The notes below the pieces were generated by a model. The model made no database searches and was not told the DNA's origin. It worked only from the letters and a program-made list of their open reading frames with translations. A program made the translations under genes and the position numbers. From Thermoplasmatota archaeon (lineage in GTDB: Archaea; Thermoplasmatota; E2; DHVEG-1), in the NCBI GenBank assembly GCA_038884455.1, contig JAWABU010000003.1, forward strand, positions 1,969 through 65,968: DNA of 64,000 bases, written 5' to 3'. Of the stretch, positions 305-42,376 are shown in pieces. How positions within the stretch are numbered: position 1 is the stretch's first letter; each line of letters opens with the position of its first letter.

Positions 305-3300
305 TTATTGCTGTCGTTTTGTATTAACTAATTGTTTTTCATATAATAATTGATAACATCGCATGTTATGTGGTATTTCCTCGTTTCCAGCATGATCCCT
401 TGCCCAATATTCAAGCATGATCATAGATCCCATCGGTATCATTGGATAATCACTATAACGAAAACTTCCTTGTGAGTTGTAAATTGTTTGAATCTCAGGT
501 ACAAATGGATGAATTCTATAATAGATTGCGGCAACTCCAGAGCCTCCTTCATCAGTTGCAATAAGACTGATTAGCTCAGATGGTAACGTTGGTCTGCCCG
601 GTGGACTGATGGTGCCTTCAGGGTTAACCATGCTCTGAGGAGGGAGGATATCTTCTTGACTGATTATGCTAAAGAAAGCAATGTTTGGTGGATGTATATT
701 ACCTGCTTTATCGGTAGCAAAAAAATGAATTTGTAGTGTTCCTGAAAGAACTCCAAAGTTTGCTGGGATGATTTCAACATCTGGTTTAAATTGTTGTTCT
801 GTTAGTAGAGGAATACCATTATGCCATATAGTATAAGTTATGGAGGAGATACCGGATCCTTCATCAAAAGCATGAATCCAAAGAGGCATCCAAGCAGGTA
901 TTTCACCACCAGGTGGAATTATACTACTTGTTGGGGGTGTATTATCTATCTGAACTGTGATTGTTTCAGTTGTCATGAATCCATTGGTGTCGCTGAGTTG
1001 TACAACAAGTGTGTGGTATCCATCAGAAAACTGTGTGGTATCAATCGGTATTGTTGTTGTCTGTTCAGGTTGTTGTTTTCTATGAAATGAATACATACTA
1101 ACATTGGTCGTATTTTTTGGTGAGATTGCCCACATTCCTAAAATCAAATAATCTGTTCCATTGTAAAAAAGACTGCTGAAACCATTTTCTGGTGGATCTG
1201 TCCACATGTCATCATCAGATTCTCCATTTGCAGGATCAACATATGAAAACCGATAGATTGGAATTTGTTCTTCACCTGCATAACCGATTGGTTCAGCATC
1301 AGCACCTTTGCCGGTCACGAAATGTCCACCCATTGAGATGTTGTCATCGCCGGTACCTGTTTTTCCATCATCTCCCGGTTCAGCAGGTACAATAAATAGG
1401 ATTACTGATTGATTCCTTCTAATTTCATCTTGGTATTTCTTATAGGTTATCTGATTACTTCCTGCTACAGGGTTCCAAGTACCGCTATTGTTTTTTATTG
1501 TTGTATCATAGCGTTTTACCTCATAACCTGATTTATTGTTGCTGCATCCAACACCTCGTCTTTCCAGATACGCTTTGATTCCTACTTCAACATTATCAGC
1601 GGTGAACGTATCATTTGTATTGTTGACTTTTCGCATAGATGTTGTTCCATGGCAACAAGTCGTGTTTAAATCATTGATGAGTTCTTGTGCTACTGCTGTA
1701 TCATTTCCTATCTTATTTACTGGATATGTGCGGTTGTCTTTGAGTTGAGCAAGTGCGTTTGCTACAGCTGTTGGTCCGCACCATCTGCTTTTATTATCCT
1801 TGGGGCAGTTTGGACCTACATCGGTTTGTTTAACTGAACCCACACCGGTCTGTTGATATTCATCTGGTGAGGTATCGGATTTGGTTTTTTGAGGTGGTGT
1901 ACCAAGTTTGAATAATTCAAGACAAGCAAGATTATCTCCTCTATTGGTAAACATAAAAGGATAGATTCCTGATATTGCTGAACCATAGGCTGGTTGAAGG
2001 ATTGTTGTTTTTGGTGGATTTCTATCAATATATACTGATCTGATGTTTTCTCCAAAACCACCATAGATATCAGTCATCTGTGCTTTTAAAAGGTAATAAC
2101 CCTCAGGTAGTCCTGTGATGTTCCACAAAACACTCCATCCTTCATCACCCATTTTTTTATTTTGTCCTTCTGGGAAAAGGTATCCTTCAAAACCACCATA
2201 GGTATCATAACCGATATCAATCCAGGTGATGCCATTGTTTGCTGAATATGAAAAACTCGTGTTGATAATTTTACCGTGGTTGATGTCAACTGCTCGAACA
2301 TAAACAGGTGAATCTTTCACTGGTGCAACCTGCCAATCTTCTTCGTACCAGAAATCAGTAGCCATAGGATTTGTGATCCAAACCCATGGTGAGTGATAGG
2401 GTGTGAGAATAAACCCTCTGAGTTGTCCAGCTGGGTTGTACCCATAACCGACAACATCTCCATGGTCATTGATATCATAGGCTTCAACAAGACTCCATCC
2501 GCAATCCGGTGGAATCAACGTGTTTAAATCCTTCATCACACCGTTTTCATACAGGAACGCATGAAGCGCGATGTTTCCAGATATCGTTGATGAACCAACA
2601 ATAGCATCCGTAGTATTGATTGCATGAGCAAATGTTTTCGTTCCACCCAAAGTTCCAAGATGAGTAACAATTCCATGGTCAAACAGATATGCACGAGTAC
2701 CTTGTGGTGTTTCTGCGTTGCCAATAATCACTCCCTGATTATTGATGTCAACTGCTTGGTCGTTTTCAAAACCAGATTCAAGACGCTGTATCCCTGTTGA
2801 TTCATTCCAGACGAATGCATGGTTATGCGTCCCATTTTCATCAGTATATGATGATGTACCAATAATAGTTCCTTGGTCATTGATTGCACGGGCAACACTC
2901 CCTGTATCACCAGGTACTATCCCGAGATCAATCATACCATTTTCTTGGCCCCAGAGAAACGCATGGGATGGTTGCCATTGTCGTGGTTCAACATACGAGG
3001 TACCGACAATCTTTCCTTGATTGTTAACATCATACGCGTAACTAACATAGTCCATCCCCATAAGACTGCCCAGATCAAACATGCCGTTTTCATTCCAAAG
3101 GCAGGCATGAACCGTCCAGTTTGGTTGCCTTCGATGTGAACTTCCAACGATCCACCCATGGTCATTGATTGCCTGAGCAGAGCTCCACAACCCGTTTCCC
3201 AAAATGCCAAGATCAGTTATTAGACCTGCATCATTCAGAAATGCATGCTGTGCTCCATATTCTACTCCTGAGCTTCCCACAACCTGACCATGGTTATTTA

Positions 3301-6300
3301 CTGCATACGCCAAGCTTACATTGGTTTCTTCACCAAGAATTCCCAGATCGGTAACACCATACGGTGCATAGACGGTTGGACCAAGAATCGTTGTGGTGGT
3401 TGTTTGAAGAACACCATTAGAAGCTATGAAGAAAAACTCATGTCTTCCTGGTGATAACCGCATTCCATACACATAGGTTAATCCTTGTTGTTTTCCACCA
3501 ATGTTACCATCTTTTGGAAAGATACGATGAACGTTTCCATCGATAATGATTGTTAAACCTTGTAGGTCATTCCATGAGGCATCAAAGATATCCCAATTTC
3601 CATTTCTATTGCTGTGCCATTTAATATCTGGCTCACAAATAGTATTAAGCGCTATATCTGGGAACATGTCATCATGGGTATCAGGTGATACGAGAATGTC
3701 GGCTGCAGGATTATTATTGCTGGTGCTGATCTCAGAGTAATAGATATCCCAGTTGCCTATACGATCATCATGCCAGGTGAGTAGTATGTCGCCATCAAGA
3801 GTAGATCCAATTACTTGTATCCGTGGGTACATTGAATATCCATCAAAAACTGGACCAGTGTAAACCCCAAAATTAGTACTTGGATCTTTCATATCGCTTT
3901 GTCGTTTTATATCATATGCTGATGGATAAGGAACACCGCCAGGCATGATGGTTATAGTACCAATGGTGAGGGTGTAGATCTCCCATTGACCTTGTATATG
4001 GGTTTGTTCTTCTTCATGACCTGGGTCGGTTGCTCTGATATCCATGAATGCTATATGAGGAGTATTGTTGGCATCTAACGCAAGAGCTGGTGATGCAGAA
4101 CTATATCCATCGTTTTCTGATGCTTGGTAATCATCAAAGTTACGGATCACGATGACACTATCGCTTGCACTGTTTCCATTGCAATCATCTCGATAGGGAT
4201 CGAGTTTTTCATAGAAGATTTCCCATGCTGTATTAATGGTGTTAAATTGATCCATCCATACGATATGGATACAATCATCGGTCCCAACTGCAAGAACTGG
4301 ACTGATAGAATCATTATTAGCCATCCATAACGGTGGTGCAGGGTTGCTAATCCTGGTATCATCAATGAGGGTTGTTGGAATGCCTTGCTGATTTGGTGCA
4401 TTATCCTGGAGTTGGTAGTAGACCTCCCAGGTTGGGTTTCGATGATCACTCCACACAATTGAAATGTTTCTTCGTGAATCAATCGTGATACCAGGATGCT
4501 CGATAAATTGAGGATCATGACTTTCAAAAGGACCAACCACGCGTCCTGAACTTTTTCCATCATGGGCTGATACCCGCCAGTCTGGTCTTGTGGCATCAGC
4601 ACCACTCTGCACTGCTGAATAGTTCAGTAACCCTCCGATTTTCGAATAATAAATCTCATAGATATCATCAGTATCGTTTGGATTAGGGTCATCACGCTGA
4701 TCCGCCCAGACAACGTGGATGTTTTCAAACACATCCATCTGCGGATGTTGGATCAAAGCAGTCTGTTCAGCAACGAGTTGATGGATCGCATATCGATGTG
4801 CTTCTTCGACAGATATTTTTCCATTATTATTATAATCTGCACTCATGTTTTGGATACGATCATAGAATCGATACACATACGAGTACGTTGTTTCGTCTTC
4901 TCTACCGCAGGCAAGCACCACGCGATGAGGACCAGCACAGTCAGGGATAAAACCACCTGCATGACACGTATCAACAACAATAACCATATCCTTATAGGGA
5001 ATCGCATCGAGTCGTTCGTCGAGTTCATCATCAGTATAACTGGTTGACGAGACAACATTTACTTCATCAGGGTTTTCATATGTGCCAAATGATTCATCAA
5101 AGTTGTCTTCACATTCATCATTTGCGGTTCGTATATCACCATTTCTCCCATTGGCTAGGGCCCGAGCTCCATGGTCTTGGAGATACACAAAGACAAGATC
5201 ATGTAATGTTGTTTGATGTTCTAATAAATGAAAAGCATTGGTTAGATTTGTTTTTGTTGCTCCTCCATCAATCCAGGATTCGTTGAAGTCAAAGGGTAAC
5301 GGTTGCCAGGTGACCGCAGGGTAGTTATCACTTTCAATGATACGCCATTTCACCAAGTTTCCTTGAGTATCAGTGATCCAATATGGTATAGTAAGCACCG
5401 TGATATGATCATCAGAAAAACCAAGGTTAAGGAGTGTCTGTCGCATTTTTTCTACTTCATATTTGAATCTTATTTCAGGATAGAAATATCGTGCGATAAA
5501 TGTGAAATCATAGGTTTGTGGTCCACCACCATCAAGATCTGAAAAACCCCATGTGATTCCTCGCCAGTCATTTGCTATATACGGGTTTCCGTCAGTGTAA
5601 TACCATTTGTATGGATCTGTTGACGTCACATCAATGCGATATGCACGTCGTATTTGAAATGGTGCGGGTACCCATTTGTAAAAGGCCAGCCATTGTTTCC
5701 CATCAGGGATTAGTGATGATGATATTGTTTTTGAAAATACGACGCCTCCCCCACCAGTTAAATCAGTAATATTTACTGTAATGCTACTTGAATAGGTAAG
5801 GTTTGGGTCTTTGTAGATCATAAGATCTATCCAGAGATCAGTTGAGAGGTACTTGTGTCCTGTGACAAATTGTTGCCAGTGGTTGGGTGTGGTGTTCACC
5901 CAGCAGCTGTGTGGTTCTTTGAACTGTGTCTGATCATAGTAGTAACGAACCGGTGCAGCTAACACAGCATACCGATCTTCATAGTGTACATCATTGAGGT
6001 AGATTTCCTCATGAGGTTCGATGATTAAGGAGGGATACATAGAATTAGAGTTGTTACCATCAGAGATCATCGTATCATTGACGATGGTTTGATTAGTAAT
6101 CGTTGTGGTACCACAGAGATTTCCAACACCGGTTCCCTGAGGGTTTATTTCTTTGTAGAAAACCTCCCATTTGAAGTTGGTATACCTCATCCACACACAA
6201 TGCGAATGATTATCATAACCAACTGCTTTACGCACATGAACATCATTATCAAGATCAACGACAACGTTTTTTTCAGTTTTAAAAAAATTCTGTCCAAAGA

Positions 6301-7903
6301 GTGTCCCTACATCATCAAAGTACTCCATGTTAAATCCATAGGTTTCTGTAGTTTGCCCTATTGTTGGGGTAACCTGTATGTTTTCAATTTCAGGTGGTGT
6401 GATATCAAGATAGATATCATAGATGGTTTTTAGTTCTTCAATGTTGTTCGCTGTATCAATACTATAATATTGAAGTATATGTGGTGTTGGATACGGTGCA
6501 AATCCTGCTAAGGTAAATGGTTCAGTGTAAATATTCCAGATTCCCGCATCGATACGGTAGAATGTACCTGCAACATCTGGATCTTTATCAGAACCGTGGA
6601 GATAATATGAGGTGTTGTCAATCGCTTCTAAGATAAACGGTGTTGTCGCACGTACTAGAATCGAGTATGTTGCTCCCTTTTGTTGCATGAGATGCGGATC
6701 ACCAATCGTTAGTTTTGTAACTGGTGGTTTCGTATCAGATGACGGAAGGGTGTATATGATACGTATATTTGAGATTTCAAGAGATCCTGCAGCATCAGAA
6801 TGGAACAAAAGTGGAATCATGACCTCCGGTGGATCTGGTGGTGCGATGCTTAGCAAATCGTTGAGCTCAGCTGAAAAATCAGACATTGTTTCTTTTGAGG
6901 TAAACAGACCGGGATGGGACCATTCAAGGTCGCCATCATTTCCTACATCAAGACTTGGATTGAAGGGATAACTCAAAAAATTTTGGTACACAGCAAAATC
7001 GTCCCAGAGTCCTTGGCCATAATTATCACTACCTGTTTCGAAATCACCAATGCGAAATGTCAGAGGATTACTTATTCCACCACAGAAAGCTGCTGTTGTC
7101 TTAAACACACCATCAATATAGATATCATAATTATTTTGAGAAGGATGAACAAAATATTCAATATGGTACCATATCGCTGGCGTCAAAGTCATTATGAGAC
7201 TATTTGTTGTCCCTGTTCGATATTTGAAGTCACAACCCTGATCAATAACAGTTAAGGTATGCGATGGATTTGAAAATACATCAAACCAATGATTCGTCGT
7301 TGAAGGTAAACGAAAATAGAAGGAAACGTGGTAATCCTGGAGAGGATCGATTGGAAGTAGATGTTCTGCTTTTGCCACAGAAGCAGGGTATTGCGGTGAA
7401 TACATACGTAAGCAGAGAGGAGGACTGTGGGGGGGACCACCACCATAGACTTGAATTATTCCTGATCCTGTTGTTGTTTTCACCCAATCAGTTATATCTC
7501 CATCATTGAAATCATCCATCCAGACAATATTCGGTGCCGGATACGGTAACCCTTTGATATCCATTTGTGCTGAAACAATAGTTGCATTTCTGGGTATACT
7601 CAGATACTCAAGAATATCACTTGCTTCTGGAAAGGTGAGATTTTTACGAGATGATCCATCAGAAAGAGTAGTAATTACATATTGTTCGGGTCGCTGTTCA
7701 TCTTTTTGTCTTATGAACTCTTTTTTATTGTTTAATTCATATGCAAGATTTTTTTTTGTAGTAGTAGATTTTGAGAGATGAGATAGATTTTTATTAGTAT
7801 CTGAAAAACATAGTGCACTTATCATGGAAACCGGTGCTGTCAATAAAAATACACAAACGAAAACCACCCAAACCCTCGGATACTTTTTGATTTTTTGTTT
7901 CAT
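305..7903 (-). CDS. Giant secreted multidomain surface protein (2532 aa). Layout, N- to C-terminus: signal peptide; LamG/ConA-like lectin domain (aa ~125-310); Ig-like domain (aa ~390-505); caspase-like clan-CD cysteine peptidase domain (His911/Cys980); about 6 PD40/TolB-like propeller repeats; about 7 HAF repeats; a papain-like module with a 'WCGPTAVANALAQL' motif (Cys2042); C-terminal Ig-like domains with AGN motifs.
   Basis: A long uninterrupted ORF with the start codon MKQKIKKYPRVWVVFVCVFLLTAPVSMISA, giving a hydrophobic signal or anchor. GGGAG lies 8 nt upstream of the ATG. The protein is dense in N-x-S/T sequons. Motifs read directly include VFVYLQDHGA...MVIVVDTCHAGGF, repeated W-x-D-x-R-x-G-x-W-(D/E)-I-Y-Y, and repeated N-D/N-x-G-Q/W-(V/I)-V-G-S...HAFLW...DLG. 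Confidence 0.9.
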   Translation of the reverse strand: MKQKIKKYPRVWVVFVCVFLLTAPVSMISALCFSDTNKNLSHLSKSTTTKKNLAYELNNKKEFIRQKDEQRPEQYVITTLSDGSSRKNLTFPEASDILEYLSIPRNATIVSAQMDIKGLPYPAPNIVWMDDFNDGDITDWVKTTTGSGIIQVYGGGPPHSPPLCLRMYSPQYPASVAKAEHLLPIDPLQDYHVSFYFRLPSTTNHWFDVFSNPSHTLTVIDQGCDFKYRTGTTNSLIMTLTPAIWYHIEYFVHPSQNNYDIYIDGVFKTTAAFCGGISNPLTFRIGDFETGSDNYGQGLWDDFAVYQNFLSYPFNPSLDVGNDGDLEWSHPGLFTSKETMSDFSAELNDLLSIAPPDPPEVMIPLLFHSDAAGSLEISNIRIIYTLPSSDTKPPVTKLTIGDPHLMQQKGATYSILVRATTPFILEAIDNTSYYLHGSDKDPDVAGTFYRIDAGIWNIYTEPFTLAGFAPYPTPHILQYYSIDTANNIEELKTIYDIYLDITPPEIENIQVTPTIGQTTETYGFNMEYFDDVGTLFGQNFFKTEKNVVVDLDNDVHVRKAVGYDNHSHCVWMRYTNFKWEVFYKEINPQGTGVGNLCGTTTITNQTIVNDTMISDGNNSNSMYPSLIIEPHEEIYLNDVHYEDRYAVLAAPVRYYYDQTQFKEPHSCWVNTTPNHWQQFVTGHKYLSTDLWIDLMIYKDPNLTYSSSITVNITDLTGGGGVVFSKTISSSLIPDGKQWLAFYKWVPAPFQIRRAYRIDVTSTDPYKWYYTDGNPYIANDWRGITWGFSDLDGGGPQTYDFTFIARYFYPEIRFKYEVEKMRQTLLNLGFSDDHITVLTIPYWITDTQGNLVKWRIIESDNYPAVTWQPLPFDFNESWIDGGATKTNLTNAFHLLEHQTTLHDLVFVYLQDHGARALANGRNGDIRTANDECEDNFDESFGTYENPDEVNVVSSTSYTDDELDERLDAIPYKDMVIVVDTCHAGGFIPDCAGPHRVVLACGREDETTYSYVYRFYDRIQNMSADYNNNGKISVEEAHRYAIHQLVAEQTALIQHPQMDVFENIHVVWADQRDDPNPNDTDDIYEIYYSKIGGLLNYSAVQSGADATRPDWRVSAHDGKSSGRVVGPFESHDPQFIEHPGITIDSRRNISIVWSDHRNPTWEVYYQLQDNAPNQQGIPTTLIDDTRISNPAPPLWMANNDSISPVLAVGTDDCIHIVWMDQFNTINTAWEIFYEKLDPYRDDCNGNSASDSVIVIRNFDDYQASENDGYSSASPALALDANNTPHIAFMDIRATDPGHEEEQTHIQGQWEIYTLTIGTITIMPGGVPYPSAYDIKRQSDMKDPSTNFGVYTGPVFDGYSMYPRIQVIGSTLDGDILLTWHDDRIGNWDIYYSEISTSNNNPAADILVSPDTHDDMFPDIALNTICEPDIKWHSNRNGNWDIFDASWNDLQGLTIIIDGNVHRIFPKDGNIGGKQQGLTYVYGMRLSPGRHEFFFIASNGVLQTTTTTILGPTVYAPYGVTDLGILGEETNVSLAYAVNNHGQVVGSSGVEYGAQHAFLNDAGLITDLGILGNGLWSSAQAINDHGWIVGSSHRRQPNWTVHACLWNENGMFDLGSLMGMDYVSYAYDVNNQGKIVGTSYVEPRQWQPSHAFLWGQENGMIDLGIVPGDTGSVARAINDQGTIIGTSSYTDENGTHNHAFVWNESTGIQRLESGFENDQAVDINNQGVIIGNAETPQGTRAYLFDHGIVTHLGTLGGTKTFAHAINTTDAIVGSSTISGNIALHAFLYENGVMKDLNTLIPPDCGWSLVEAYDINDHGDVVGYGYNPAGQLRGFILTPYHSPWVWITNPMATDFWYEEDWQVAPVKDSPVYVRAVDINHGKIINTSFSYSANNGITWIDIGYDTYGGFEGYLFPEGQNKKMGDEGWSVLWNITGLPEGYYLLKAQMTDIYGGFGENIRSVYIDRNPPKTTILQPAYGSAISGIYPFMFTNRGDNLACLELFKLGTPPQKTKSDTSPDEYQQTGVGSVKQTDVGPNCPKDNKSRWCGPTAVANALAQLKDNRTYPVNKIGNDTAVAQELINDLNTTCCHGTTSMRKVNNTNDTFTADNVEVGIKAYLERRGVGCSNNKSGYEVKRYDTTIKNNSGTWNPVAGSNQITYKKYQDEIRRNQSVILFIVPAEPGDDGKTGTGDDNISMGGHFVTGKGADAEPIGYAGEEQIPIYRFSYVDPANGESDDDMWTDPPENGFSSLFYNGTDYLILGMWAISPKNTTNVSMYSFHRKQQPEQTTTIPIDTTQFSDGYHTLVVQLSDTNGFMTTETITVQIDNTPPTSSIIPPGGEIPAWMPLWIHAFDEGSGISSITYTIWHNGIPLLTEQQFKPDVEIIPANFGVLSGTLQIHFFATDKAGNIHPPNIAFFSIISQEDILPPQSMVNPEGTISPPGRPTLPSELISLIATDEGGSGVAAIYYRIHPFVPEIQTIYNSQGSFRYSDYPMIPMGSMIMLEYWARDHAGNEEIPHNMRCYQLLYEKQLVNTKRQQ
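1304..1846 (-). other. Second copy of a papain-fold cysteine peptidase-like module, in giant protein 1. The candidate Cys2042 is encoded at 1778-1780.
   Basis: The motif NCPKDNKSRWCGPTAVANALAQL has the same C-G-P-(A/T) core as the module in giant protein 2. Further cysteines lie downstream (TTCCHG, GVGCS). Confidence 0.35.
2414..3361 (-). repeat. Array of about 7 HAF-family extracellular repeats within giant protein 1 (aa ~1515-1830). Pattern: INDxGqVVGsS ... HAFLW ... G-M-x-DLG.
   Basis: The protein-level repeats were read directly: AVNNHGQVVGSS...AQHAFLNDAG..DLG, AINDHGWIVGSS...HACLWNENGMFDLG, DVNNQGKIVGTS...HAFLWGQENGMIDLG, AINDQGTIIGTS...HAFVWNESTGIQ, DINNQGVIIG...RAYLFDHGIVTHLG, AINTTDAIVGSS...HAFLYENGVMKDL, and DINDHGDVVGYG...RGFILT. 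Confidence 0.7.
3554..4726 (-). repeat. PD40/TolB-like beta-propeller repeat region within giant protein 1 (aa ~1060-1450), with about 6 blades.
   Basis: Recurring motif instances: HVVWADQRDD..DIYEIYY, ISIVWSDHRNPTWEVYY, IHIVWMDQFNT..AWEIFY, PHIAFMDIR...WEIYT, ILLTWHDDRIGNWDIYY, and DIKWHSNRNGNWDIFD. Confidence 0.55.
4754..5416 (-). other. Caspase-like clan-CD cysteine peptidase domain (C14 metacaspase / C25 / CHAT-like) embedded in giant protein 1. Putative catalytic His911 is encoded at 5171-5173 and Cys980 at 4964-4966.
   Basis: A hydrophobic strand is followed by His-Gly (LVFVYLQDHGA). About 69 residues later a hydrophobic strand is followed by D-T-C-H-A-G-G (MVIVVDTCHAGGF). This is the clan-CD dyad signature (cf. 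metacaspase DSCHSG). The codon positions were verified on the DNA. Confidence 0.55.
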
Positions 7904-7946: not shown

Positions 7947-10900
7947 CTATTTTTTAACTATTCCTTCTTGATTTATAAAAAAGAACAACTCATAATCATT
8001 GATGGTTATTCTCCATTCTGGGTAGTATGGTGATGAGTTTCGGTAGGCGAGATCGAATGTCATGGTTGTTGGTTTTTTGGGTGTGATTCCGTGTTCTTCA
8101 CAGTAGTTGAAAAGTATTTGTTGTGCTTCTTGTTGTGATATTGGTAGATACTTCATAGGTGTGGTTGTCCATGATGTTTCTTTGAAGCTGCCATCATTGG
8201 CATCGATGATAACAACAATGACGGTTTGCTCAGTTGGTGTTTGTTGTGTTCGTTGGTATGTTTGTGTTTTTGTTGGTAGGTTAAAAGGTACTAGGTAGTA
8301 ATCATTTCCACCGTTGAGGTTTTTGATGAAGAGTGGTGTTCCTGGTGTTGTTTTTTGGAATAGATCTGCAAATTCTGTGTCATAGGGGATGAGTTCTTCG
8401 GTGATGCCTGTGATTGCTGCTTGGGTGATCCATTGGTCAATTTGTTTTTGTAGGTCTTCTGTTGTTTTGGTATTTTTGTTTTGTGTGCGGTGTATGAGTT
8501 GTTGTTGTTCTGCTGTAAACTGAGTTTTTGTTGTTGCTAGGGTGATTGTGGTGTCGGTTCGTGTTTCTGGTGGTTCGCAGAGTGCAACGTATTTGCCGTT
8601 GTAGATGTCGTTTGATGTGAGTGGTTGGTAGTAGTTTGTGTTCCATTGGGTGATGGTTTTGTAGCTGTTTTCACCGATTCCTCCTGGTAATGGATCGTTG
8701 ACCCAGAAGCCGTAGATGGTGAGATTTGTGGGTAGTGGATAGGTGGGTTGGTTGGTGTGTATGCCTCGGATTGCCATCCAGTTGCTGTAATCTCCATATG
8801 CTGGGACCAGTGCTGGAACATGCAGTGGATGTCCTGGTTTATATCCGCCATAGGTACCGATTGTATAGTTAATCCATGTGCAGATTTGCTGGAGCATATA
8901 TGTTTGGTTGGTGTTGCTGTATTTGTTGAAGTTGTATCCGTAGGTGGTGTAGGGGAGTGGTCGGTAGGTTTGGAGGAGTTTCCAGAGTCCTTGGGTGTCA
9001 ATGTAGGGTATGGTTTGATCACTATTATTTGCATGGCCTGCTGTGTAGAGCCATTGTTGATCTGAAAAGATTAATGGTGGTTCACTAGGGTTTTGTGTTT
9101 GGTTCCACCACATATAATTGAGCGTCATCTGTGCACATGCAGGACCGCACATTTGATGATACGGTGCTATCGCTTGGTACATCGGAAAGTTGTTGAGGTT
9201 GATGAAGTAGCCTATTGAGAAGGTGTAAACCGTTGAGGTTTTCGTATTTCCGTTGTTGTCTTGTGCCCAGATTGTGTACGAGTAGATGCCCTGTGTTTGA
9301 TACGTGGTATTGTAGTAGTACTGTGCAGTTCCTGGTATTTGAGCCATGGTGATATTTGTTGCTGGTCCAACTGGTGGGAGGATGTGCACGTTCACCATGT
9401 GTATACCACTCAGATCAAACGCAGAACAGCTGATGTTTACAGATTTGTTTGGTACTTGAAGTAGTGGTGTTGCTGTGATTGATGTTATCTCAGGTTTGGT
9501 GGTATCAGCCTGTGTTGTAAAGGTGAAGATACTGCTTGTTTCGTAGATACCATCAGTTACTACGACTTTCCAGGAGTAGGTGGTAAAATAGTGTGAAAAT
9601 GCAGAGGGGCGTTGCATGATGGTTACTGGCGATGTTGTGTCGCTGCTGTAGTTTGCAGCAAACGGCTCCCAGGTTCCCGTCGTGTTGGTGTACCATGTTG
9701 CATGCAGGATATCATGATCAGGATCATTGATGGTTACTTGAAGAAGTGGATTGAGTTCAATCGTATTTGAATTGTTTGATGGTGTTGGGTTGTAGGGTTT
9801 GGTTGGTGCATGTTTCAAGGTTGAGATGCGGACTTCATCAATGGTTCCTTTGAATTCAAGGGTTCCTCCATGACCGCTGAGTCGTTTGCCAATACCAAGC
9901 GGGTTTTGTGAGGATGCAGGTGGATAGATCCATGATGCTGGCGGTGCATCTAGTTTTCCATCAACATACACATGAGCATGGGTTCCTGTCCATTCACCGG
10001 CAACATGATGCCATTGATTGTCTCGAAGTATCGTGGATCCCCAGATGTCCTTGGTTCCGTACGAACCACAATACAATGATAATCGAAGTACTCCTCCGTT
10101 GATGTACAGCGTGAATCCTCTCCCATTGGTGGTGTACTGGAGTTTGTCGACGATGATAAGGTAGTTATCGGTTGCTGCTGTTCGAATCCATGCTTCAACT
10201 CTGAAGGGTTGGGTAATATCTAAACTTGAGTTGTGAGGAATGGTGATATAATCGTTTCCATCAAAGTATAAGCACGAACCAATTTTTCCAGGTGTCCATG
10301 TTGCACCAGTGATTATTCCATCATTGTGATACGTTGAGGTGTCGTATGCTATTGATCCGGTTCCTTCGTCAAGATGCCAGTACCCTTGAGCATGCATATA
10401 CTCTGTGGTGAAACTCCAGATTGGACCTGAAATTGTATGACCGTATGTATCATGTGCGACAACCATCCATGTATACGTTGTAGAATACTCGAGTCCTGCT
10501 GTTTGATAATACTGTTTTGTTTGTTGCGATGCTATCTTGATGAGTTGCGAGGGGCTACTTCCGAAATATACGTCATACGTGAGTGTGTCTTCTGTATCTA
10601 TCTCATTGCAAGTCCAGGTGAGATTGACAAAGACACTGATATTTGATGCACTGGAACTTGGAGTTGGATCTGAGGGGAGGTTTGGTGGTGTGTTTGGTTT
10701 TGTGGAAAACATCCAGAGTGGCCCAGATGTCGTTAACCCAGAGGAATCATGCGCAACAATCCTCCAGTAGTAGGTTGTATCATATGAAAGAAGAGGCAGA
10801 TCATAGGATGAGGTTGGATGTCCTGTGATGAGGAGTTCTGGGTTTGGTGTTGTCCCAAAATAAAGATCATACAGAAGGATCTCACCAGGGTCTGGGTCGG

Positions 10901-13900
10901 TACATGACCAGCTGAGATCTGTGGTTATCGGGAGATTTTGTGCAGTATGCTGTGGTGTTGGTTGCTCTGGTCTGGTTGGATAGTTGTGTTGCTGGTAGAC
11001 TTTGATTTGGTAGGCGCCACCGCCAAGGTCTTCGTAAACTGCAAGATCATTGAAACCATTATTGTTAAAATCATCAATCGCAGTGGTAAGCAGTGTTCCT
11101 GTTCCGGTGTATTCTTTGATTGGCTGATAGTTGGTATTATAAATAGTCACCATGTTTTGATGGGTGATTGCAAGTTCGTTGATGTGGTCATTGTTGAAAT
11201 CACCGATATACACACCACTGGTTTGTGTGATACTTGGTGACGTATATAGTAGATTCCATGATTGTTGATTTCCATAGATTCGAACTTGGTTTACTCGGGA
11301 GACGACGACTTCATTTCCTTGTTCTGGTAAAAAATCACCAATTGCGACGTCACGCATGGTTGACAATGCCAAAGAACTAAGTTCAGCACCAAATCGGTTG
11401 TAGACTCGTAAAACAGTTCCGGTACCTGAACCTGTGATGAGAAGAATATCATCAAAGCCATCGTTGTCAAAATCACCAACTGCCGCTCCTCGTTGGAGTA
11501 GTTTGACAAACAACTGTTTATACCCAACATCACTGAATTGAGAGTAGCTTTTTTCTGGAAGTGGTCGGTAGAGACAGGAACCAAAGGTTTGTCCTTGGTA
11601 TGGATCATAGAGTTCTTCACAGTTGTTGCCGTTGTGGTGATCAATGATGCCGAAAAACATGTGGATTGTCCCATCTTTTTCAGTGACTGCGATATCATTG
11701 TATCCATCATGGTTATGATCCTTGATAATGACTGCTTGTGGTTGATTGAGCCCAGGAATCCTAAACAACAGATGACCGGTGGTGTTGAAGATTGACACAT
11801 ATCCGATCCGTTGTTCAGCAACCGCAAGATCTACATATCCATCGTTGTTGATATCGCCAATTGAAACCCCCATAGGATCATGCAGACCATGTATGGTTCG
11901 AAGTATTGCACCTGTGCTGTTCAAGATTTTGACTGAACCATTTGCATATTCAGCAACTGCAATATCATTTGAACCGTCATGGTTATAATCACCAATACAC
12001 ACACCAGTTGGTATATTCAATCCAGAGACTTGTTGTACCTGATTACCATTGGCGTCGTAGACAACAACGGTGTTTGATGATTCAATTTTCACGATTCTAC
12101 CTGTTGGTCCAAAGGTTCCTAGTGCTACCCCATTGAGACCTCTGAGACCTTTATCTCCACCTATAGGGTTGCCATTTCTATCCATTGGTACAACCTGTGC
12201 TGCACCAGTTGTCATCAGGTCAGCAAGCACAGCGCTGGTGAGTCGTTGGTTGAGTAATGCTTCTTGTGGATTATTTTTGAATAAGTCAATTATTGTAGCA
12301 AACTCCTCTGAATCATTGGTTGGTGCACCAGGTGTATAGCCTTTAAGGAGTGTAACGGTTGACACAGTACTTGGTAATGTGAGTCCGCAGTAGTTTCCAG
12401 CAATCACTCGATAACAGAGGATCTTGTTTGCATCACCTTGTCGATTCACTATAACCTCTGTTCCGTTACCATTGAACACCTGCCATGAGGATCGTTCCCA
12501 TTGACATCGCGGTGGTACAAAATCATTGTCAGGATAGTATTCTGCTTCTTCAACAATGTAAAATGTTGCCCCAGGAACTCGAGTCCAGTTTATGGTGAGC
12601 GGCAGATCTGAGTTGACGATGGATCCATTGGTTGGTGTATTAAGTGTTGGTCTGCCTTGTGGAGGAGTCCATCCGACTTGGTAACAATTTGAATATAACA
12701 CTTGGATATCAACAATATTACTCCAGGGTGAAACACCACCTATTATGTCACTGACCCGCATGCGGTAGTAATACGTGGTTGTTTCAGCTGGTGCTTTCCA
12801 GAGTTTTTCATACAGATCAGTTCGTGATCCTGAAACATCCCATTCTCGGACGATAGTAGAAAATAGTGGATCTGTTGATTCTTGAAGATCAATATTGGTG
12901 GTGGATGAAACCGGATCCCAGCTGATGATATATGCTCGGTATCGTTCTATGGTGGTGCCTGGGTCATGAAGTAGTGGTGCTGGTTGCGTTTTGTTACCAT
13001 ATACGGTTACGGTGATCGTATCACTCCAGTCCCCATCTTCAGCATATGGTGCAAGTGCTTGGATACGGTAGTAATACGTTCGTGTAAATGTTGTGTTATG
13101 TGCTGTTGACCAGTTGGTCGCGGGAATGACACCGCATCCTCCAAATATTTTGTCGACAATGAGATGATCAAATCCGCGATCGGTTGCTTCTTGGAGGCGA
13201 TATTGTCCTTCTGGCTCGATACGATTCCAGGTAAATGAGTAGGATTGTCCTGCGTAGGTTTCACGGGTACTTGGTTTGAGGCTTGGTGTTCCTGGTTTTG
13301 GAACTCCTGAGGTGCCGTATACTTTTTTTATCACCGGATTACTCCATGGTCCAAAGCCACCACTGTTTTTTCCTTTCACACGGTAGTAGTAGGTTGTCGT
13401 CGTGGTTGGTGAATGTTGAAATGCTTTATGAAAGGTTGATTTATTGGTTGTATATGTTTGAAGGTTTTGTGTAAACGTTGGGTTTGTTGCCTCTTCAATG
13501 AAGTATTCATGGATATCACTTTGATTATACGTCCATTCAATAAAGTAAGGGACACAGTGGGATGTGTTAAAGGTTGGTTGTATCAAACGTGGTGCATATT
13601 TTGGTGGAGGGAGTATTTCGATACTAACGTTTCGACTCCAGTTTCCATCATAGTACGTTGAACCAATTTTCCGGCGACATGCAATTTGATATTCGTAGAC
13701 GGTTGGTTCAGTAACAGTATGAGAAAAGGAGTAGCCAAACCACCATGATCCATCAGTCTGATTTTGATACATGACATGGTCGTTAAGATTAAGGATCGTA
13801 TTCTCGTTCCAATAGATTTCATTGATGAGTTTTTTTTCAATACGTGGCCTGTCAGCCGCAGTAAGGTTCACCCATTGATATTCTCTCAAATGATATCCAT

Positions 13901-15986
13901 AGTCGATGCCACTGGTGGTCTTTTTCCAATGAAAACCATAGACACGCCCTGATCCATTTCTGACTGGAAGATCCTTGATGATTGGTGCATCTTCTGGTTT
14001 TGCTTGAATTGTGATTGAAACAACATTGCTCACTGGACCATAGCGATCGAATTTATTATAGGGAACTACTCGATAGTAATAGGTGATCTGTGGTGTCGTT
14101 TTGAGAAACGGTCGCCACAGCCAGGTCTGTGCAGGATAATTATACCAGGTAACATTGTTTGTTGATTCCTGAAGGACATAATATGCGATGCGATCAACCG
14201 TATTCCAGGAAACGAGGTAGAATCCATATTCCTGTACTGAAGGTTGTGATACCGTGATGGTTGGTTTGCTGGGTGGTGCAAGGATTTCAACGGAGCGATA
14301 ATCGGTACAGGTACCACCGTTTTTATCAGTCACCTTCACCACGATCGTGCATCGTCCTGGTGCAAGTGTATTTGTTGAAAACCAGGTTGTTTTCGAAGAA
14401 ACACCGGTCTGAACAGAGAGTAGTCGCGAGGTGATATTACGATGTTCATCTCGTCGTTCTTCAAACCATTCATAGGTATATGGACCGTTGCCTTTGGTTA
14501 CTTTTGCAGTAAATGAAATCGTATCATTCTGAGCAATGAGTGTATACTCATCAGCAGGTTTTTCGAATTCAATAATCGGATATTCAACTGGTGCATAGTA
14601 AATCAATGCATTATGCAGCCAGATACCTTTATGATGATTTTCATAGCCTCCTTCAAGGAACGGATCACCATCATATCTGAAATTTACATATGCGGTTGAT
14701 GCGCCTGCTGCTTGGGCCCGGATATATGCCCCTGCCCAAATATAATTTGCTACGTTCTGATTTAATTTCACATTTTGTAAAAAGATTGTTTTCGCTCCTG
14801 AGGTGTTTTCTGAAACATTAAACAACATATCGTAGAATTGTAAAATATCGATGATATTACCGACTCCAGGAATTCCGAGTGATTGCTCGATTGCTTCATC
14901 AAGGACAGAATTTGCAACAATGTTAACAATTTCTTCAGTATACGAAAGTGCAGGGCCCAGAACGTCGACAAGATCACCTCCTTCAGCAAGCTTGGTCCAT
15001 TTAGAGATACCTGCCGGCGGTGGTGCTCCCCATGCGAGACCTGAACCGACAATATATCCATACAATGAAGCACCGATCGGTGAAACAGAGTTGACATCCA
15101 TGCTTCCAGCCCAGGTCGTTCGAATGAAAATATTTGCACGGCGATTCTCAGCAGTTTCAATCGGACTGAATTCTCGATAACTAAATGCTGCTACCTCAGA
15201 ATATGATCGTAAGAATTCATCCATTTCAGTGAATTCTTTCCAAGATGCATGATACCCATGCGCGAATACCCAGGGATGGACTGCATATCCAGAGATGGTT
15301 AGATCAGTATAGATGCCTGGGTAAACTGACCAATCGCCATGTTCTGTCGCCCAGGTTTGACAAGGATCTGAATCCTGGACTTCAACGTAAGAACCAGAAA
15401 AAAGAAGACGAGGATACGAATCCTGTGCGTTCAGCGTGATCTCAAGGGTTCCAAGCTCAGCCATCAGCGTAGCAATATAGATGCTGTCGTGGAGTTTCCC
15501 AACATCTTGCACCGTCTTATTTCCGCAGGTGTATCGCTCATAGATCTGGGTAGGGCTGTTTGGTGTTGAATATATTAAAAACGAGATATTATCTGCGAGA
15601 TCAATCGTTGTTGTGGTAACTTCGGTAAGAAGATGGCATATAATCGTATCGCCATAGGTTGCTCCAAGATCAATAGTATAGGTGATGTGATCACTGTTAT
15701 CTGATTCAGGGACGTAGTGAAAATCAGTAAAAACAGCGCCCCTTCTCCTAGTTGATTTTGGTTGATTTGCATAGTCTCCAGTTTTTTCTGAAGCCAAGGA
15801 CGTTTCTTTTTTAGATTCTTTTGGTACGTCTCCACAGTGCTGACATGGCTCGTCATGTTCGACATCTGCAGCTTTAGCAGTGTTCTTTGAAACAAACTGA
15901 GTATTGGTACATGGTACAAAACAAAATCCAAAAAACAGCATCGTCAACGACAACGCTATGAGTATTTTTTTTGTTTGAACATGCAT
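7947..15986 (-). CDS. Giant secreted multidomain surface protein 2 (about 2680 aa). Layout: signal peptide; unknown N-terminal region; several FN3-like domains (YYYRV motifs); a 7-blade FG-GAP / integrin-alpha-like propeller (aa ~1300-1670); 2 FN3 domains; a LamG/ConA-like lectin domain (aa ~1875-2060); Ig-like domains; a papain-like module with a 'QMCGPACAQMTL' motif (Cys2285); a Thr/Gln-rich linker; and a C-terminal domain.
   Basis: A single uninterrupted ORF. The six-frame track starts it at the ATG at 16001 (MGGKNM...). I prefer the in-frame ATG at 15986 (MHVQTKKILIALSLTMLFFGFCF...) because GGGAGG lies 7-8 nt upstream. Either way there is a signal peptide. The FG-GAP, FN3, LamG and papain-like motifs listed below were read directly. 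N-x-S/T sequons are very dense. Confidence 0.9.
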   Translation of the reverse strand: MHVQTKKILIALSLTMLFFGFCFVPCTNTQFVSKNTAKAADVEHDEPCQHCGDVPKESKKETSLASEKTGDYANQPKSTRRRGAVFTDFHYVPESDNSDHITYTIDLGATYGDTIICHLLTEVTTTTIDLADNISFLIYSTPNSPTQIYERYTCGNKTVQDVGKLHDSIYIATLMAELGTLEITLNAQDSYPRLLFSGSYVEVQDSDPCQTWATEHGDWSVYPGIYTDLTISGYAVHPWVFAHGYHASWKEFTEMDEFLRSYSEVAAFSYREFSPIETAENRRANIFIRTTWAGSMDVNSVSPIGASLYGYIVGSGLAWGAPPPAGISKWTKLAEGGDLVDVLGPALSYTEEIVNIVANSVLDEAIEQSLGIPGVGNIIDILQFYDMLFNVSENTSGAKTIFLQNVKLNQNVANYIWAGAYIRAQAAGASTAYVNFRYDGDPFLEGGYENHHKGIWLHNALIYYAPVEYPIIEFEKPADEYTLIAQNDTISFTAKVTKGNGPYTYEWFEERRDEHRNITSRLLSVQTGVSSKTTWFSTNTLAPGRCTIVVKVTDKNGGTCTDYRSVEILAPPSKPTITVSQPSVQEYGFYLVSWNTVDRIAYYVLQESTNNVTWYNYPAQTWLWRPFLKTTPQITYYYRVVPYNKFDRYGPVSNVVSITIQAKPEDAPIIKDLPVRNGSGRVYGFHWKKTTSGIDYGYHLREYQWVNLTAADRPRIEKKLINEIYWNENTILNLNDHVMYQNQTDGSWWFGYSFSHTVTEPTVYEYQIACRRKIGSTYYDGNWSRNVSIEILPPPKYAPRLIQPTFNTSHCVPYFIEWTYNQSDIHEYFIEEATNPTFTQNLQTYTTNKSTFHKAFQHSPTTTTTYYYRVKGKNSGGFGPWSNPVIKKVYGTSGVPKPGTPSLKPSTRETYAGQSYSFTWNRIEPEGQYRLQEATDRGFDHLIVDKIFGGCGVIPATNWSTAHNTTFTRTYYYRIQALAPYAEDGDWSDTITVTVYGNKTQPAPLLHDPGTTIERYRAYIISWDPVSSTTNIDLQESTDPLFSTIVREWDVSGSRTDLYEKLWKAPAETTTYYYRMRVSDIIGGVSPWSNIVDIQVLYSNCYQVGWTPPQGRPTLNTPTNGSIVNSDLPLTINWTRVPGATFYIVEEAEYYPDNDFVPPRCQWERSSWQVFNGNGTEVIVNRQGDANKILCYRVIAGNYCGLTLPSTVSTVTLLKGYTPGAPTNDSEEFATIIDLFKNNPQEALLNQRLTSAVLADLMTTGAAQVVPMDRNGNPIGGDKGLRGLNGVALGTFGPTGRIVKIESSNTVVVYDANGNQVQQVSGLNIPTGVCIGDYNHDGSNDIAVAEYANGSVKILNSTGAILRTIHGLHDPMGVSIGDINNDGYVDLAVAEQRIGYVSIFNTTGHLLFRIPGLNQPQAVIIKDHNHDGYNDIAVTEKDGTIHMFFGIIDHHNGNNCEELYDPYQGQTFGSCLYRPLPEKSYSQFSDVGYKQLFVKLLQRGAAVGDFDNDGFDDILLITGSGTGTVLRVYNRFGAELSSLALSTMRDVAIGDFLPEQGNEVVVSRVNQVRIYGNQQSWNLLYTSPSITQTSGVYIGDFNNDHINELAITHQNMVTIYNTNYQPIKEYTGTGTLLTTAIDDFNNNGFNDLAVYEDLGGGAYQIKVYQQHNYPTRPEQPTPQHTAQNLPITTDLSWSCTDPDPGEILLYDLYFGTTPNPELLITGHPTSSYDLPLLSYDTTYYWRIVAHDSSGLTTSGPLWMFSTKPNTPPNLPSDPTPSSSASNISVFVNLTWTCNEIDTEDTLTYDVYFGSSPSQLIKIASQQTKQYYQTAGLEYSTTYTWMVVAHDTYGHTISGPIWSFTTEYMHAQGYWHLDEGTGSIAYDTSTYHNDGIITGATWTPGKIGSCLYFDGNDYITIPHNSSLDITQPFRVEAWIRTAATDNYLIIVDKLQYTTNGRGFTLYINGGVLRLSLYCGSYGTKDIWGSTILRDNQWHHVAGEWTGTHAHVYVDGKLDAPPASWIYPPASSQNPLGIGKRLSGHGGTLEFKGTIDEVRISTLKHAPTKPYNPTPSNNSNTIELNPLLQVTINDPDHDILHATWYTNTTGTWEPFAANYSSDTTSPVTIMQRPSAFSHYFTTYSWKVVVTDGIYETSSIFTFTTQADTTKPEITSITATPLLQVPNKSVNISCSAFDLSGIHMVNVHILPPVGPATNITMAQIPGTAQYYYNTTYQTQGIYSYTIWAQDNNGNTKTSTVYTFSIGYFINLNNFPMYQAIAPYHQMCGPACAQMTLNYMWWNQTQNPSEPPLIFSDQQWLYTAGHANNSDQTIPYIDTQGLWKLLQTYRPLPYTTYGYNFNKYSNTNQTYMLQQICTWINYTIGTYGGYKPGHPLHVPALVPAYGDYSNWMAIRGIHTNQPTYPLPTNLTIYGFWVNDPLPGGIGENSYKTITQWNTNYYQPLTSNDIYNGKYVALCEPPETRTDTTITLATTKTQFTAEQQQLIHRTQNKNTKTTEDLQKQIDQWITQAAITGITEELIPYDTEFADLFQKTTPGTPLFIKNLNGGNDYYLVPFNLPTKTQTYQRTQQTPTEQTVIVVIIDANDGSFKETSWTTTPMKYLPISQQEAQQILFNYCEEHGITPKKPTTMTFDLAYRNSSPYYPEWRITINDYELFFFINQEGIVKK
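8592..9209 (-). other. Papain-fold (clan CA; C39-like or C10/streptopain-like) cysteine peptidase-like module in giant protein 2. The candidate nucleophile Cys2285 is encoded at 9147-9149.
   Basis: The motif YHQMCGPACAQMTLNYMWW resembles the C-G-x-A-C / G-C-V-A-T-A-x-A-Q active-site helix start of C39-like and C10 peptidases. The codon was verified on the DNA. The family assignment is tentative. Confidence 0.4.
10992..12104 (-). repeat. Seven FG-GAP repeats (integrin-alpha-like 7-blade beta-propeller with Ca-binding DxDxDG-like loops) within giant protein 2.
   Basis: Seven instances of the (V/I)xxGDxNxDGxxDxxV motif: GVCIGDYNHDGSNDIAVAE, SIGDINNDGYVDLAVAE, IIKDHNHDGYNDIAVTE, AVGDFDNDGFDDILLIT, VAIGDFLPEQGNEVVVS, YIGDFNNDHINELAIT, and AIDDFNNNGFNDLAVYE. 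Confidence 0.7.
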
Positions 15987-16029
15987 ATTTTTGCCTCCCA
16001 TTGATAAACTTTAGCAAGATTTACATATC

Positions 16030-16269: not shown

Positions 16270-20188
<3,919 letters not shown>

Positions 20189-20207
<19 letters not shown>

Positions 20208-23022: not shown

Positions 23023-23095
23023 TGCGGGCGCCGGGATTTGAACCCGAGTTTTAAGCTTGGCAAGCTTAAGTGATACCAGACTACACTACACCCGC
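23023..23095 (-). tRNA. tRNA-Gly (anticodon GCC), 73 nt. The 3'-CCA is not encoded.
   Basis: The reverse complement is GCGGGTGTAGTGTAGTCTGGTATCACTTAAGCTTGCCAAGCTTAAAACTCGGGTTCAAATCCCGGCGCCCGCA. It has a 7-bp acceptor stem including one G-U pair. The anticodon loop is TT-GCC-AA. The T-arm is GGG-TTCAAAT-CCC. The 3' end is followed by TT. Confidence 0.85.
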
Positions 23096-29976: not shown

Positions 29977-30333
29977 TTAGATCACCTCAAGAATAACAAA
30001 AAGAACCGCAAGGATTATGGTAAACCAGATGACGTAATCACGAGCATCACCAGTATGTATTTTTGTTACAACTGTATAGACTGAACGCATGCTATGGATA
30101 AAACCCCAGTAGAGATTACTCGCAGTCACATGGGTTTGATCTGAGGAATACTCAATGTTTCCTGAGAGAAAAGGTTGTTCTTGATCAGTATTTTTTTTGT
30201 AGTCTTTTCTCCCAAACATTCGAAGAACATAGATCAACAGGAAGATAAAAACAAATGCGAGAATCCAAAGAATCGGATGCCAAAAACCGCTTCCGGTGGA
30301 AAATTTTTCAAGGAGTGATTCTACAAGGTTCAT
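29977..30333 (-). CDS. Small membrane subunit (MbhI-like).
   Basis: A 118-aa hydrophobic protein inside the cluster. Confidence 0.4.
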   Translation of the reverse strand: MNLVESLLEKFSTGSGFWHPILWILAFVFIFLLIYVLRMFGRKDYKKNTDQEQPFLSGNIEYSSDQTHVTASNLYWGFIHSMRSVYTVVTKIHTGDARDYVIWFTIILAVLFVILEVI

Positions 30334-30336
30334 TGT

Positions 30337-31920: not shown

Positions 31921-32291
31921 TCTTTTAACCTCCGTATTTTTGAAACATCAAGTGAACCATACTGTTTATAGATGTGCATCACCAACGACAGCATCAGTGC
32001 AAGCACAGCAACTCCGATAACAATACTGGTTAGGGTAAGTGCCTGAGGAACAGGAAACACCATGCTTGATGGGACGTTGCGGATAACCTCTGAAGGTGCG
32101 CTGGTGTAAATCGGGGCAACACCTCCTTCTCGATACCCAAGTGTTATGAGGAACAGGTTAACACCGCTTTCAATAATTGTAATTCCAATGACAATTTTGA
32201 TGAGATTTTTCCGAAATATTACTGCATATAAACCGATGATAATGATAATAACAACTGCAATAAAAGGAAAATTCATCATCATTGCTTCCAC
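31917..32291 (-). CDS. MrpC/NuoK-like subunit (MbhG-like).
   Basis: It contains GITIIESGVNLFLITLGYREGG, which is NuoK/MnhC-like. Confidence 0.6.
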   Translation of the reverse strand: MEAMMMNFPFIAVVIIIIIGLYAVIFRKNLIKIVIGITIIESGVNLFLITLGYREGGVAPIYTSAPSEVIRNVPSSMVFPVPQALTLTSIVIGVAVLALMLSLVMHIYKQYGSLDVSKIRRLKE

Positions 32292-33023: not shown

Positions 33024-33029
33024 ACTGTG

Positions 33030-34580: not shown

Positions 34581-34586
34581 TTTTTT

Positions 34587-39728: not shown

Positions 39729-39753
39729 AAAATGGTTCTGGAGGAAGAAACAT

Positions 39754-40314: not shown

Positions 40315-40338
40315 ACAAAAATTCAATGTGACGTTGCT

Positions 40339-40911: not shown

Positions 40912-40914
40912 TAC

Positions 40915-42353: not shown

Positions 42354-42376
42354 ACACTACGGAGGATACAAGCAAT

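Follow-up and report, generated by a model that had tools for sequence, protein, structure and literature searches.

A C13-type clan CD cysteine peptidase domain predicted in a giant exported protein of a Thermoplasmatota archaeon

The gene and the extent of its peptidase domain

The window analysed here is a 64,000-nt stretch of contig JAWABU010000003.1 (GenBank assembly GCA_038884455.1, positions 1,969 to 65,968 of the forward strand) from a Thermoplasmatota archaeon. Near its start a complete minus-strand gene encodes a multidomain protein of 2,532 amino acids (aa), identical by exact-sequence look-up to NCBI MEM4257694.1, which carries the name 'MAG: C13 family peptidase [Candidatus Thermoplasmatota archaeon]' (MAG, metagenome-assembled genome). 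A preliminary description, made from the sequence alone, had placed a caspase-like peptidase domain of clan CD at 4754-5416, corresponding to aa 830-1050. The open reading frame (ORF) is uninterrupted on the minus strand, and plus-strand translation of that segment is stop-rich. The segment does fall within a peptidase domain, but covers only about two thirds of it, as the first beta-strand of the fold lies upstream, at aa 644-654 (Table 1).

The only hydrophobic segment of the protein in a Kyte-Doolittle scan is N-terminal (aa ~8-35; 19-residue windows scoring >1.6 start only at aa 8-17), within MKQKIKKYPRVWVVFVCVFLLTAPVSMISALCF, and the same scan found no C-terminal anchor. With a signal sequence at the N-terminus as its sole hydrophobic segment, the protein is predicted to be exported and the peptidase domain to work outside the cell.

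Table 1 Features of the 2,532-aa protein and its gene (positions in the window).
Feature	Residues (aa)	Position	Strand	Basis
Complete gene, 2,532-aa multidomain protein	1-2,532	305-7903	minus	ORF list and translation
Signal peptide or signal anchor, MKQKIKKYPRVWVVFVCVFLLTAPVSMISALCF	1-~35	7799-7903	minus	Kyte-Doolittle scan
Full clan CD/C13-like peptidase domain, including nested insert	~640-1060	4724-5986	minus	Pfam C13, homologue conservation, AlphaFold, Foldseek
Beta-strand 1 motif, RYAVLAAPVRY	644-654	5942-5974	minus	Motif search in homologues; A2 alignment
Nested insert (~150 aa) between strand 1 and helix 1	~657-805	5489-5935	minus	Homologue spacing, A2 gaps, model
Helix 1 N-terminus, E810-I-R-F-K-Y-E816	810-816	5456-5476	minus	hhalign, hmmsearch against butelase, hmmalign, A2
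Catalytic His strand, LVFVYLQDHGA	903-913	5165-5197	minus	Direct match; alignments
His911 codon	911	5171-5173	minus	
Acidic His-to-Cys spacer	913-972	4988-5167	minus	Charge count, conservation
Catalytic Cys strand, MVIVVDTCHAGGF	973-985	4949-4987	minus	Direct match; alignments
Cys980 codon	980	4964-4966	minus	
L5 substrate-binding loop, REDETTYS	1001-1008	4880-4903	minus	hhalign, hmmalign; L5 role from PMC4357240
EF-hand-like 12-residue loop, DYNNNGKISVEE	1023-1034	4802-4837	minus	Pattern scan, conservation
Propeller-like repeats, motif hVVWxDxR...(W)EIYY	~1062-1500	3404-4720	minus	Motif scan
HAF repeats/DUF3466 region	~1530-1800	2504-3316	minus	NCBIfam TIGR02913, Pfam DUF3466
Peptidase_C39_2-like (papain-fold) region, borderline	2036-2202	1298-1798	minus	Pfam

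Searched exhaustively with HMMER, 1.8 billion representatives yielded 284 relatives, while a word-indexed homologue search with aa 780-1100 gave no matches. Two alignments were used throughout: A1, of 41 diverse homologues, and A2, of a narrower 16-sequence clade. Invariant in A2 are A646, L648 and P651 in strand 1, K814, L824, D879, A882, H911, G912, F939, T941, C980, G983, R994, Y1011, E1034 and H1036. The domain stretch is conserved along its entire length in homologues P0002-P0006 and opens, in all members of the clade, with the hallmark (R/K)YA(I/L)L(A/V)APVR, which aligns with 'HWVVIVAGS' of legumain.

Strand 1 is followed by a nested insert. The distance from strand 1 to the DHG motif of the catalytic His is ~265 aa here and in the six closest relatives (P0002-P0007), compared with ~105 aa in P0008-P0015, and the gap pattern of A2 likewise restricts the insert to the closest relatives. 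In the predicted structure it forms an eight-stranded beta-sandwich (aa 665-769; strands E30-E134 of the model, pLDDT [predicted local distance difference test] 78-94), then a low-confidence loop; no Pfam family matched aa ~657-805. The insert occupies the loop leading into helix 1, the N-terminus of which, in clan CD enzymes, helps to form the S1 pocket (PMC4357240), and the sandwich may act as an exosite or lid. For annotation, the consequence is that the domain is split and its first strand easily overlooked.

Assignment to family C13 of clan CD

The two motifs on which the preliminary description had built its catalytic dyad, LVFVYLQDHGA and MVIVVDTCHAGGF, are both present exactly, with His911 and Cys980 spaced by 69 residues, and they occur in the order typical of clan CD, each catalytic residue being preceded by hydrophobic residues (LVFVYLQDH911G912, then MVIVVDTC980). 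The conserved Gly after the catalytic His is a clan-wide feature (PMC4357240).

Pfam placed the domain in Peptidase_C13 (PF01650), with 30.5 bits for the whole protein, 38.5 bits (E 1.3e-9) for aa 780-1100 and 36.8 bits for another sub-fragment, the cut-off being 22.8; 35 of 41 homologue segments match the same family. Peptidase_C14 (PF00656) remained below its gathering threshold (15.8 vs 21.4 bits; E 0.011). Alignment of A1 by hhalign with human legumain, the sequence of which was checked against PDB entries, gave 97.8% probability (E 1.1e-12) and set His911 on His148 and Cys980 on Cys189. A hidden Markov model (HMM) of A1 run against PDB matched metacaspase-4 (AtMC4) at 2.4e-25 and legumains at ~1e-12, with the dyad in register (AtMC4 His86 and Cys139 opposite His911 and Cys980), as well as yeast and Candida metacaspases, GPI8 and TbMCA2. 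With the narrower A2 profile, all 33 PDB matches were C13 enzymes, namely legumain, asparaginyl endopeptidase (AEP), peptide asparaginyl ligase (PAL) and GPI8, butelase being the best (3e-7), and no metacaspase appeared at E<=0.01. The single sequence in phmmer gave only a marginal PDB match, to metacaspase-4 (E 0.43).

AlphaFold with A1 produced a model with pLDDT 78.5 and pTM (predicted template modelling score) 0.83, in which the caspase/haemoglobinase alpha/beta fold is found; the model made with no alignment (pLDDT 36) was unusable. The best Foldseek match was legumain (4awb; E 6.6e-7, TM-score 0.57 on target), followed by GPI8 and plant AEPs, with metacaspase, GSU0716 and MALT1 ranking lower; of the 50 PDB entries matched at E<=1e-3, 49 belong to clan CD (legumain, GPI8, metacaspase, GSU0716, MALT1). 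Clan CD matches were thus obtained from Pfam, profiles and fold alike, and the His and Cys named in the preliminary description stand at the catalytic positions in the alignments. Taken together, aa ~640-1060 almost certainly constitute a clan CD cysteine peptidase domain of C13 (legumain/GPI8) type.

Within clan CD the domain is placed in the C13-like branch, as a divergent member and not as an orthologue of legumain. With the legumain/AEP/PAL group (MEROPS C13, PF01650; 4awb, butelase 6dhi) it shares a Pfam score above the cut-off, the register of the dyad, the L5 motif RE-(S/T)(S/T)-Y and secretion, and legumain is the best structural match of the predicted six-stranded caspase-like fold. 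It differs in that identity is only 12-15%, the His-Cys spacer is 69 aa as opposed to 41 in legumain, a nested 150-aa beta-sandwich follows strand 1, an EF-hand-like loop is present and the whole is embedded in a 2,532-aa protein; regulation would also likely be by cations here, whereas legumain is regulated by acidic pH. GPI8/PIGK (C13; 7wld, 8imy) belongs to the same Pfam family, is matched by both A1 and A2 and gives a fold match at E 2e-6, but is a transamidase in a five-subunit endoplasmic reticulum membrane complex, and no such partners or membrane anchor are found here.

Likeness to metacaspases (C14B; AtMC4 6w8s, Yca1 4f6o, CgMCA-I 7qp0, TbMCA2 4afr) extends to the D-x-C-H-(S/A)-G motif at the Cys, the two acidic S1 residues (E816, D978), the acidic segment 'DE-x-DG-x-DE ... 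DDE' with its cation-binding Asp (D936, D958/D959), and the score of the broad A1 profile, which is highest against AtMC4. On the other side, Pfam C14 is below threshold, A2 finds no metacaspase, metacaspases rank below ~25 legumain/GPI8 entries in Foldseek, no p10 linker or autoprocessing region is present, and metacaspases are cytosolic. Identification as a metacaspase proper was rejected on the Pfam C14 score, the A2 profile and the fold ranking. A caspase-like protease of a defence system was also rejected, as the protein is predicted to be secreted and no PADLOC defence-system model matched either this protein or its 2,684-aa neighbour.

Putative extracellular clan CD peptidases of the sediment Thermoplasmatota Thermoprofundales/MBG-D (Marine Benthic Group D), comprising clostripain (C11), gingipain (C25) and legumain (C13) types, resemble the present domain in phylum, clan and predicted extracellular location. 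They appear as genome annotations without domain-level analysis, and an insert, cation motifs and giant-protein context of the kind found here are not described in the text consulted (PMC6461988). Literature searches found no characterised prokaryotic legumain. As a C13 annotation of the protein already exists and such enzymes are expected in the phylum, the assignment itself is of low surprise. The nested insert and the two calcium motifs leave the classification unchanged, and are likely to be noteworthy for specialists in clan CD evolution.

Catalytic and S1 residues

H911, G912, C980 and G983 are retained throughout the 16-sequence clade, including all members that bear the insert. Retention of the dyad is informative here because some small relatives have lost the Cys and the His (see below).

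Residues expected to line the S1 pocket can be aligned with those of both legumains and metacaspases. In the alignments R812 corresponds to legumain Arg44 (S1), T1006 to Ser216 (S1) and Y1007 to Tyr217, the aromatic residue of L5. With hmmalign, E816 falls on the S1 Asp of helix 1 in metacaspases (Cg D120, AtMC4 D25; Cg, Candida glabrata), and D978, at the S1 position of L4 two residues before the catalytic Cys, falls on Cg D236, AtMC4 D137 and legumain E187. All 16 members of the clade have E, D or N in the E816 column, and 11 have Asp at the position of D978. In metacaspases an acidic S1 pair on helix 1 and L4 (TbMCA2 D95/D211) gives specificity for Arg/Lys. The pocket may therefore be read either as legumain-like (Arg plus an acid, with Asn/Asp at P1) or as metacaspase-like (D978 plus E816, with Arg/Lys at P1). 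We lean slightly towards a predicted preference for basic P1 residues over Asn/Asp, because D978 and E816 are acidic and metacaspase-like and R812 is not conserved in the clade.

Acidic spacer and putative calcium sites

The stretch between the dyad residues is highly acidic, as previously noted. Its 68 residues (aa 912-979) include 18 Asp/Glu and 5 Lys/Arg, i.e. 26.5% acidic residues vs 12.2% in the whole protein. Among all windows of 68 residues in the protein it ranks at the 98.8th percentile, and the window richest in acidic residues begins within it, at aa 921. A pattern is conserved in A2, (N/G)DE-x-(E/x)D-x-x-D-(E/G)-x-F-x-T-Y ... (W/Y)-x-DDE-(L/I/F)-D-x-x-L-D, represented in this protein by NDE-x-ED-x-FDE-x-F-x-TY ... 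(W/Y)xDDELDxxLD; beside the invariant F939 and T941, conservation is at least 90% at D958, D959 and E960. AlphaFold models the spacer partly as strand and helix. A low-complexity linker or unique insert was considered for this stretch and rejected, given the conservation, the invariance of F939/T941 and the partly good modelling.

With hmmalign, N934, D936, D958 and D959 align with G196, D198, D214 and D215 of the C. glabrata metacaspase. The Ca2+ ligands of that enzyme, CgMCA-I, are G196, D198, D214, T242 and D245, of which D198, D214 and D245 correspond to TbMCA2 D173, D189 and D220 (PMC9622860). The preliminary idea that the spacer could bind calcium is supported by homology only, through its alignment with the metacaspase cation loop. 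The spacer is shared and conserved within the family and is not an insert specific to this protein.

A clearer calcium motif, absent from the preliminary description, is the EF-hand-like loop DYNNNGKISVEE, the sole match in the protein to the EF-loop pattern D-x-[DNS]-x-[DNS]-G-x-[ILV]-[DSTN]-x-x-E. In the model it is flanked by helices H378-381 and H397-410, and it leads into the invariant E1034-A-H1036. E1034 is the same in all 41 homologues of A1, and D1023, G1028 and S1031 are each kept in at least 90% of them. EF-hand families match some homologues at 1.7e-4 to 3e-4, and the A1 profile matches calcium-binding proteins in PDB. Activity is probably calcium-dependent, to judge from these motifs, because the spacer keeps the metacaspase cation-binding Asp (D936, D958/D959) and the EF-hand-like loop lies in addition beside the last helices.

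Relatives and their loci

A near-identical twin of the protein differs at 14 positions; its NCBI name, 'DUF3466 family protein', derives from the HAF region and not from the peptidase. Five proteins are 45-54% identical over aa 620-1090, and remoter relatives include both multidomain and single-domain proteins. P0004 and P0011 carry the peptidase module in another architecture, with PKD and NosD/beta-helix domains. Among metagenomic relatives, P0014, P0017, P0018, P0020, P0057 and P0116 are secreted single-domain proteins of ~240 aa in which the fold motifs and the EF-hand-like loop are kept and the catalytic Cys is replaced by Tyr, sometimes with Arg or Asn for the His; these are likely to be pseudo-peptidases.

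The closest homologues, P0002 and P0003 (1,524 and 1,272 aa), are encoded in tandem beside one S8 and two C25 genes. At this locus (L004; JGI 3300042089, contig Ga0466255_047322, 1-16453) the S8 subtilase is large and has PKD domains and the C25 proteins are gingipain-like, so that it looks like an extracellular peptidase cluster. When species-representative genomes were searched for related loci with a six-sequence alignment, four were found, all in Thermoplasmata/Thermoplasmatales MAGs; with the single protein, the same genomes yielded no loci.

Function of the domain

Uncultured Thermoplasmatota, which abound in sediments, are believed to subsist on detrital protein by means of secreted cysteine peptidases, none of which, to our knowledge, has been biochemically characterised. 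The reading that we favour, and hold to be reasonably probable, is that the domain is an active, secreted and probably Ca2+-dependent endopeptidase of C13 type, acting on external proteins and carried on a long binding stalk. The Cys980 thiolate would attack the scissile bond with His911 as general base, and Glu810 would probably orient His911. The S1 pocket would be formed by the N-terminus of helix 1 (E810/R812/E816), Asp978 and loop L5 (T1006/Y1007); judging from the alignments, E810, the putative calcium ligands and the insert would all lie close to the active site. External detrital or surface proteins would be the substrates, and the propeller-like, HAF and Ig-like modules would provide the stalk. 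The preliminary description had suggested processing of partner-cell surface proteins or self-maturation of the giant protein, both of them putative roles. A degradative role is suggested because P0002 and P0003 adjoin S8 and C25 genes, and because Thermoprofundales genomes are reported to carry putative extracellular C11, C25, C10 and C13 peptidases (PMC6461988). In practical terms, aa ~636-1085 are a well-delimited candidate domain with clear catalytic, S1 and putative calcium-site residues, which could show what archaeal 'legumain' annotations cut.

Several observations weigh against an active, calcium-dependent endopeptidase of this kind. Glu810 stands at legumain Asn42, so that the Asn of the catalytic triad is replaced by Glu, although this residue could fill the same orienting role (the column in A2 is Glu in 14 of 16, with one Asp and one Tyr). 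The S1 residues of legumain are only partly matched, with F813 at His45 and H981 at Glu190, the residue that follows the catalytic Cys in legumain; legumain S1 Asp231 has no alignable counterpart, and R812 is replaced by Trp in the close homologues P0003 and P0006 and variable in the wider clade. The C-terminal activation peptide and LSAM (legumain stabilisation and activity modulation) prodomain of legumain are absent, alignments with prolegumain spanning the peptidase domain only, and activation by acidic pH is probably lacking too. As for calcium, Cg D245, the third Asp of the metacaspase cation site, has P987 opposite it, D988 being the next residue, and the Pfam EF-hand_5 match of this sequence is weak and below threshold (E 0.053). 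In terms of context, of the homologue loci examined a single one has a peptidase-rich neighbourhood and the rest have unrelated neighbours, and the neighbour in the window is another giant adhesin-like protein, with no peptidase or peptide transporter.

An alternative is an autoprocessing module, which would cleave, in cis or in trans, its own giant protein or the 2,684-aa protein encoded next to it, releasing or maturing functional fragments, and would not be a general enzyme of digestion. Such autoprocessing is known from legumain, gingipain polyproteins and the MARTX cysteine protease domain, and clan CD enzymes often require or perform proteolytic maturation (PMC4357240). As would be expected of a portable maturation module, the peptidase sits mid-protein in very different architectures (HAF/propeller here, PKD plus NosD/beta-helix in P0004 and P0011); most homologue loci are without other peptidases; and a cation-gated switch would fit activation only after export. 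We nevertheless regard this function as unlikely, since no cleavage site can be identified from the sequence, free-standing single-domain homologues (~240-360 aa) have nothing to process and one pair of homologues is encoded in what clearly looks like a cluster of extracellular peptidases. Autoprocessing and external endoproteolysis are not mutually exclusive.

The replacement of Cys by Tyr in some relatives, sometimes with loss of the His, indicates that the fold is also used non-catalytically in the superfamily, and the nested beta-sandwich sits at the S1-forming loop. Both points would suit a binding or scaffold module in which the dyad is merely retained, or a zymogen that the insert keeps permanently blocked. 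This seems improbable for the protein described here, as the His, Gly, Cys and flanking motifs are invariant in 16 of 16 clade members, including every insert bearer, and the motifs of the S1 region and L5 are conserved as well.

No more credible to us is a broader proposal, in which the clade would be a distinct calcium-gated lineage bridging legumains and metacaspases. Digestion would not be its task; through controlled transpeptidation or processing it would build or reshape giant adhesin-like proteins of the cell surface. A C13 core and fold would be joined in it by the cation loop of metacaspases and their acidic S1, an extra EF-hand and, at the S1 loop, a nested beta-sandwich serving as a lid; we think this improbable too. 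If true, it would amount to an extracellular archaeal counterpart of GPI8 or of butelase-type ligases.

A transpeptidase or ligase like GPI8 or the plant PALs, which would use an amine nucleophile and attach or cross-link surface proteins, is likewise improbable: butelase 1 and Viola PALs are the best PDB matches of the A2 profile (3e-7 to 5e-7) and GPI8 is both matched by it and among the top structural matches, but ligases and hydrolytic legumains score nearly alike, ligase gatekeeper residues are unmappable at 13-15% identity, the surroundings contain neither partner subunits nor an acceptor system that can be recognised, and archaea use archaeosortases for surface anchoring.

Other regions of the protein and neighbouring genes

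Directly after the peptidase domain, in the same polypeptide but outside the protease fold, lie four to six hVVWxDxR...(W)EIYY repeats. No Pfam family matched them (aa ~1062-1500); they probably form a beta-propeller. They are followed by the HAF region, recognised by TIGR02913 in six stretches (E 3.2e-48), and Ig-like domains are also present downstream of the peptidase domain. The Peptidase_C39_2 match of aa 2036-2202 falls just short of the cut-off (23.5 vs 24 bits; E 9.2e-5). This region has the motifs RWCGPTAV and, later, GGHF, plus VDP, and may be another cysteine peptidase or a module for processing.

The adjacent ORF (7947-16001, minus strand) encodes a secreted protein of 2,684 aa with Laminin_G_3, FG-GAP repeats and fn3-like modules. 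The preliminary description had the peptidase tethered to lectin and propeller domains; the Laminin-G and FG-GAP modules belong to this neighbour, and what the peptidase-bearing protein has of its own are the HAF and propeller-like repeats. Towards the C-terminus of the neighbour, a region containing 'QMCGPACAQ' (aa ~2283) looks peptidase-like by eye, with no Pfam match. A paralogous relationship with the C39-like region was considered and rejected, as BLASTP found no similarity and Pfam no match.

The remainder of the window is archaeal in character, with A-type ATP synthase, aIF5B, a NOG1-type GTPase, CTP-dependent riboflavin kinase and TruD. A block of complex-I or membrane-bound-hydrogenase-like subunits (28918-36747, minus strand; NADHdh, Proton_antipo_M and 49-kDa/NiFe large subunit) is followed by the A-type ATP synthase operon (37767-46189, plus strand). 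A tRNA-Gly(GCC) gene lies at 23023-23095 (minus strand). At 16424-20207 (minus strand), within archaeal surroundings, the gene of a bacterial-type NAD+-dependent DNA ligase overlaps that of a PolX-PHP polymerase; the ligase, LigA, has its full set of domains, BRCT among them.

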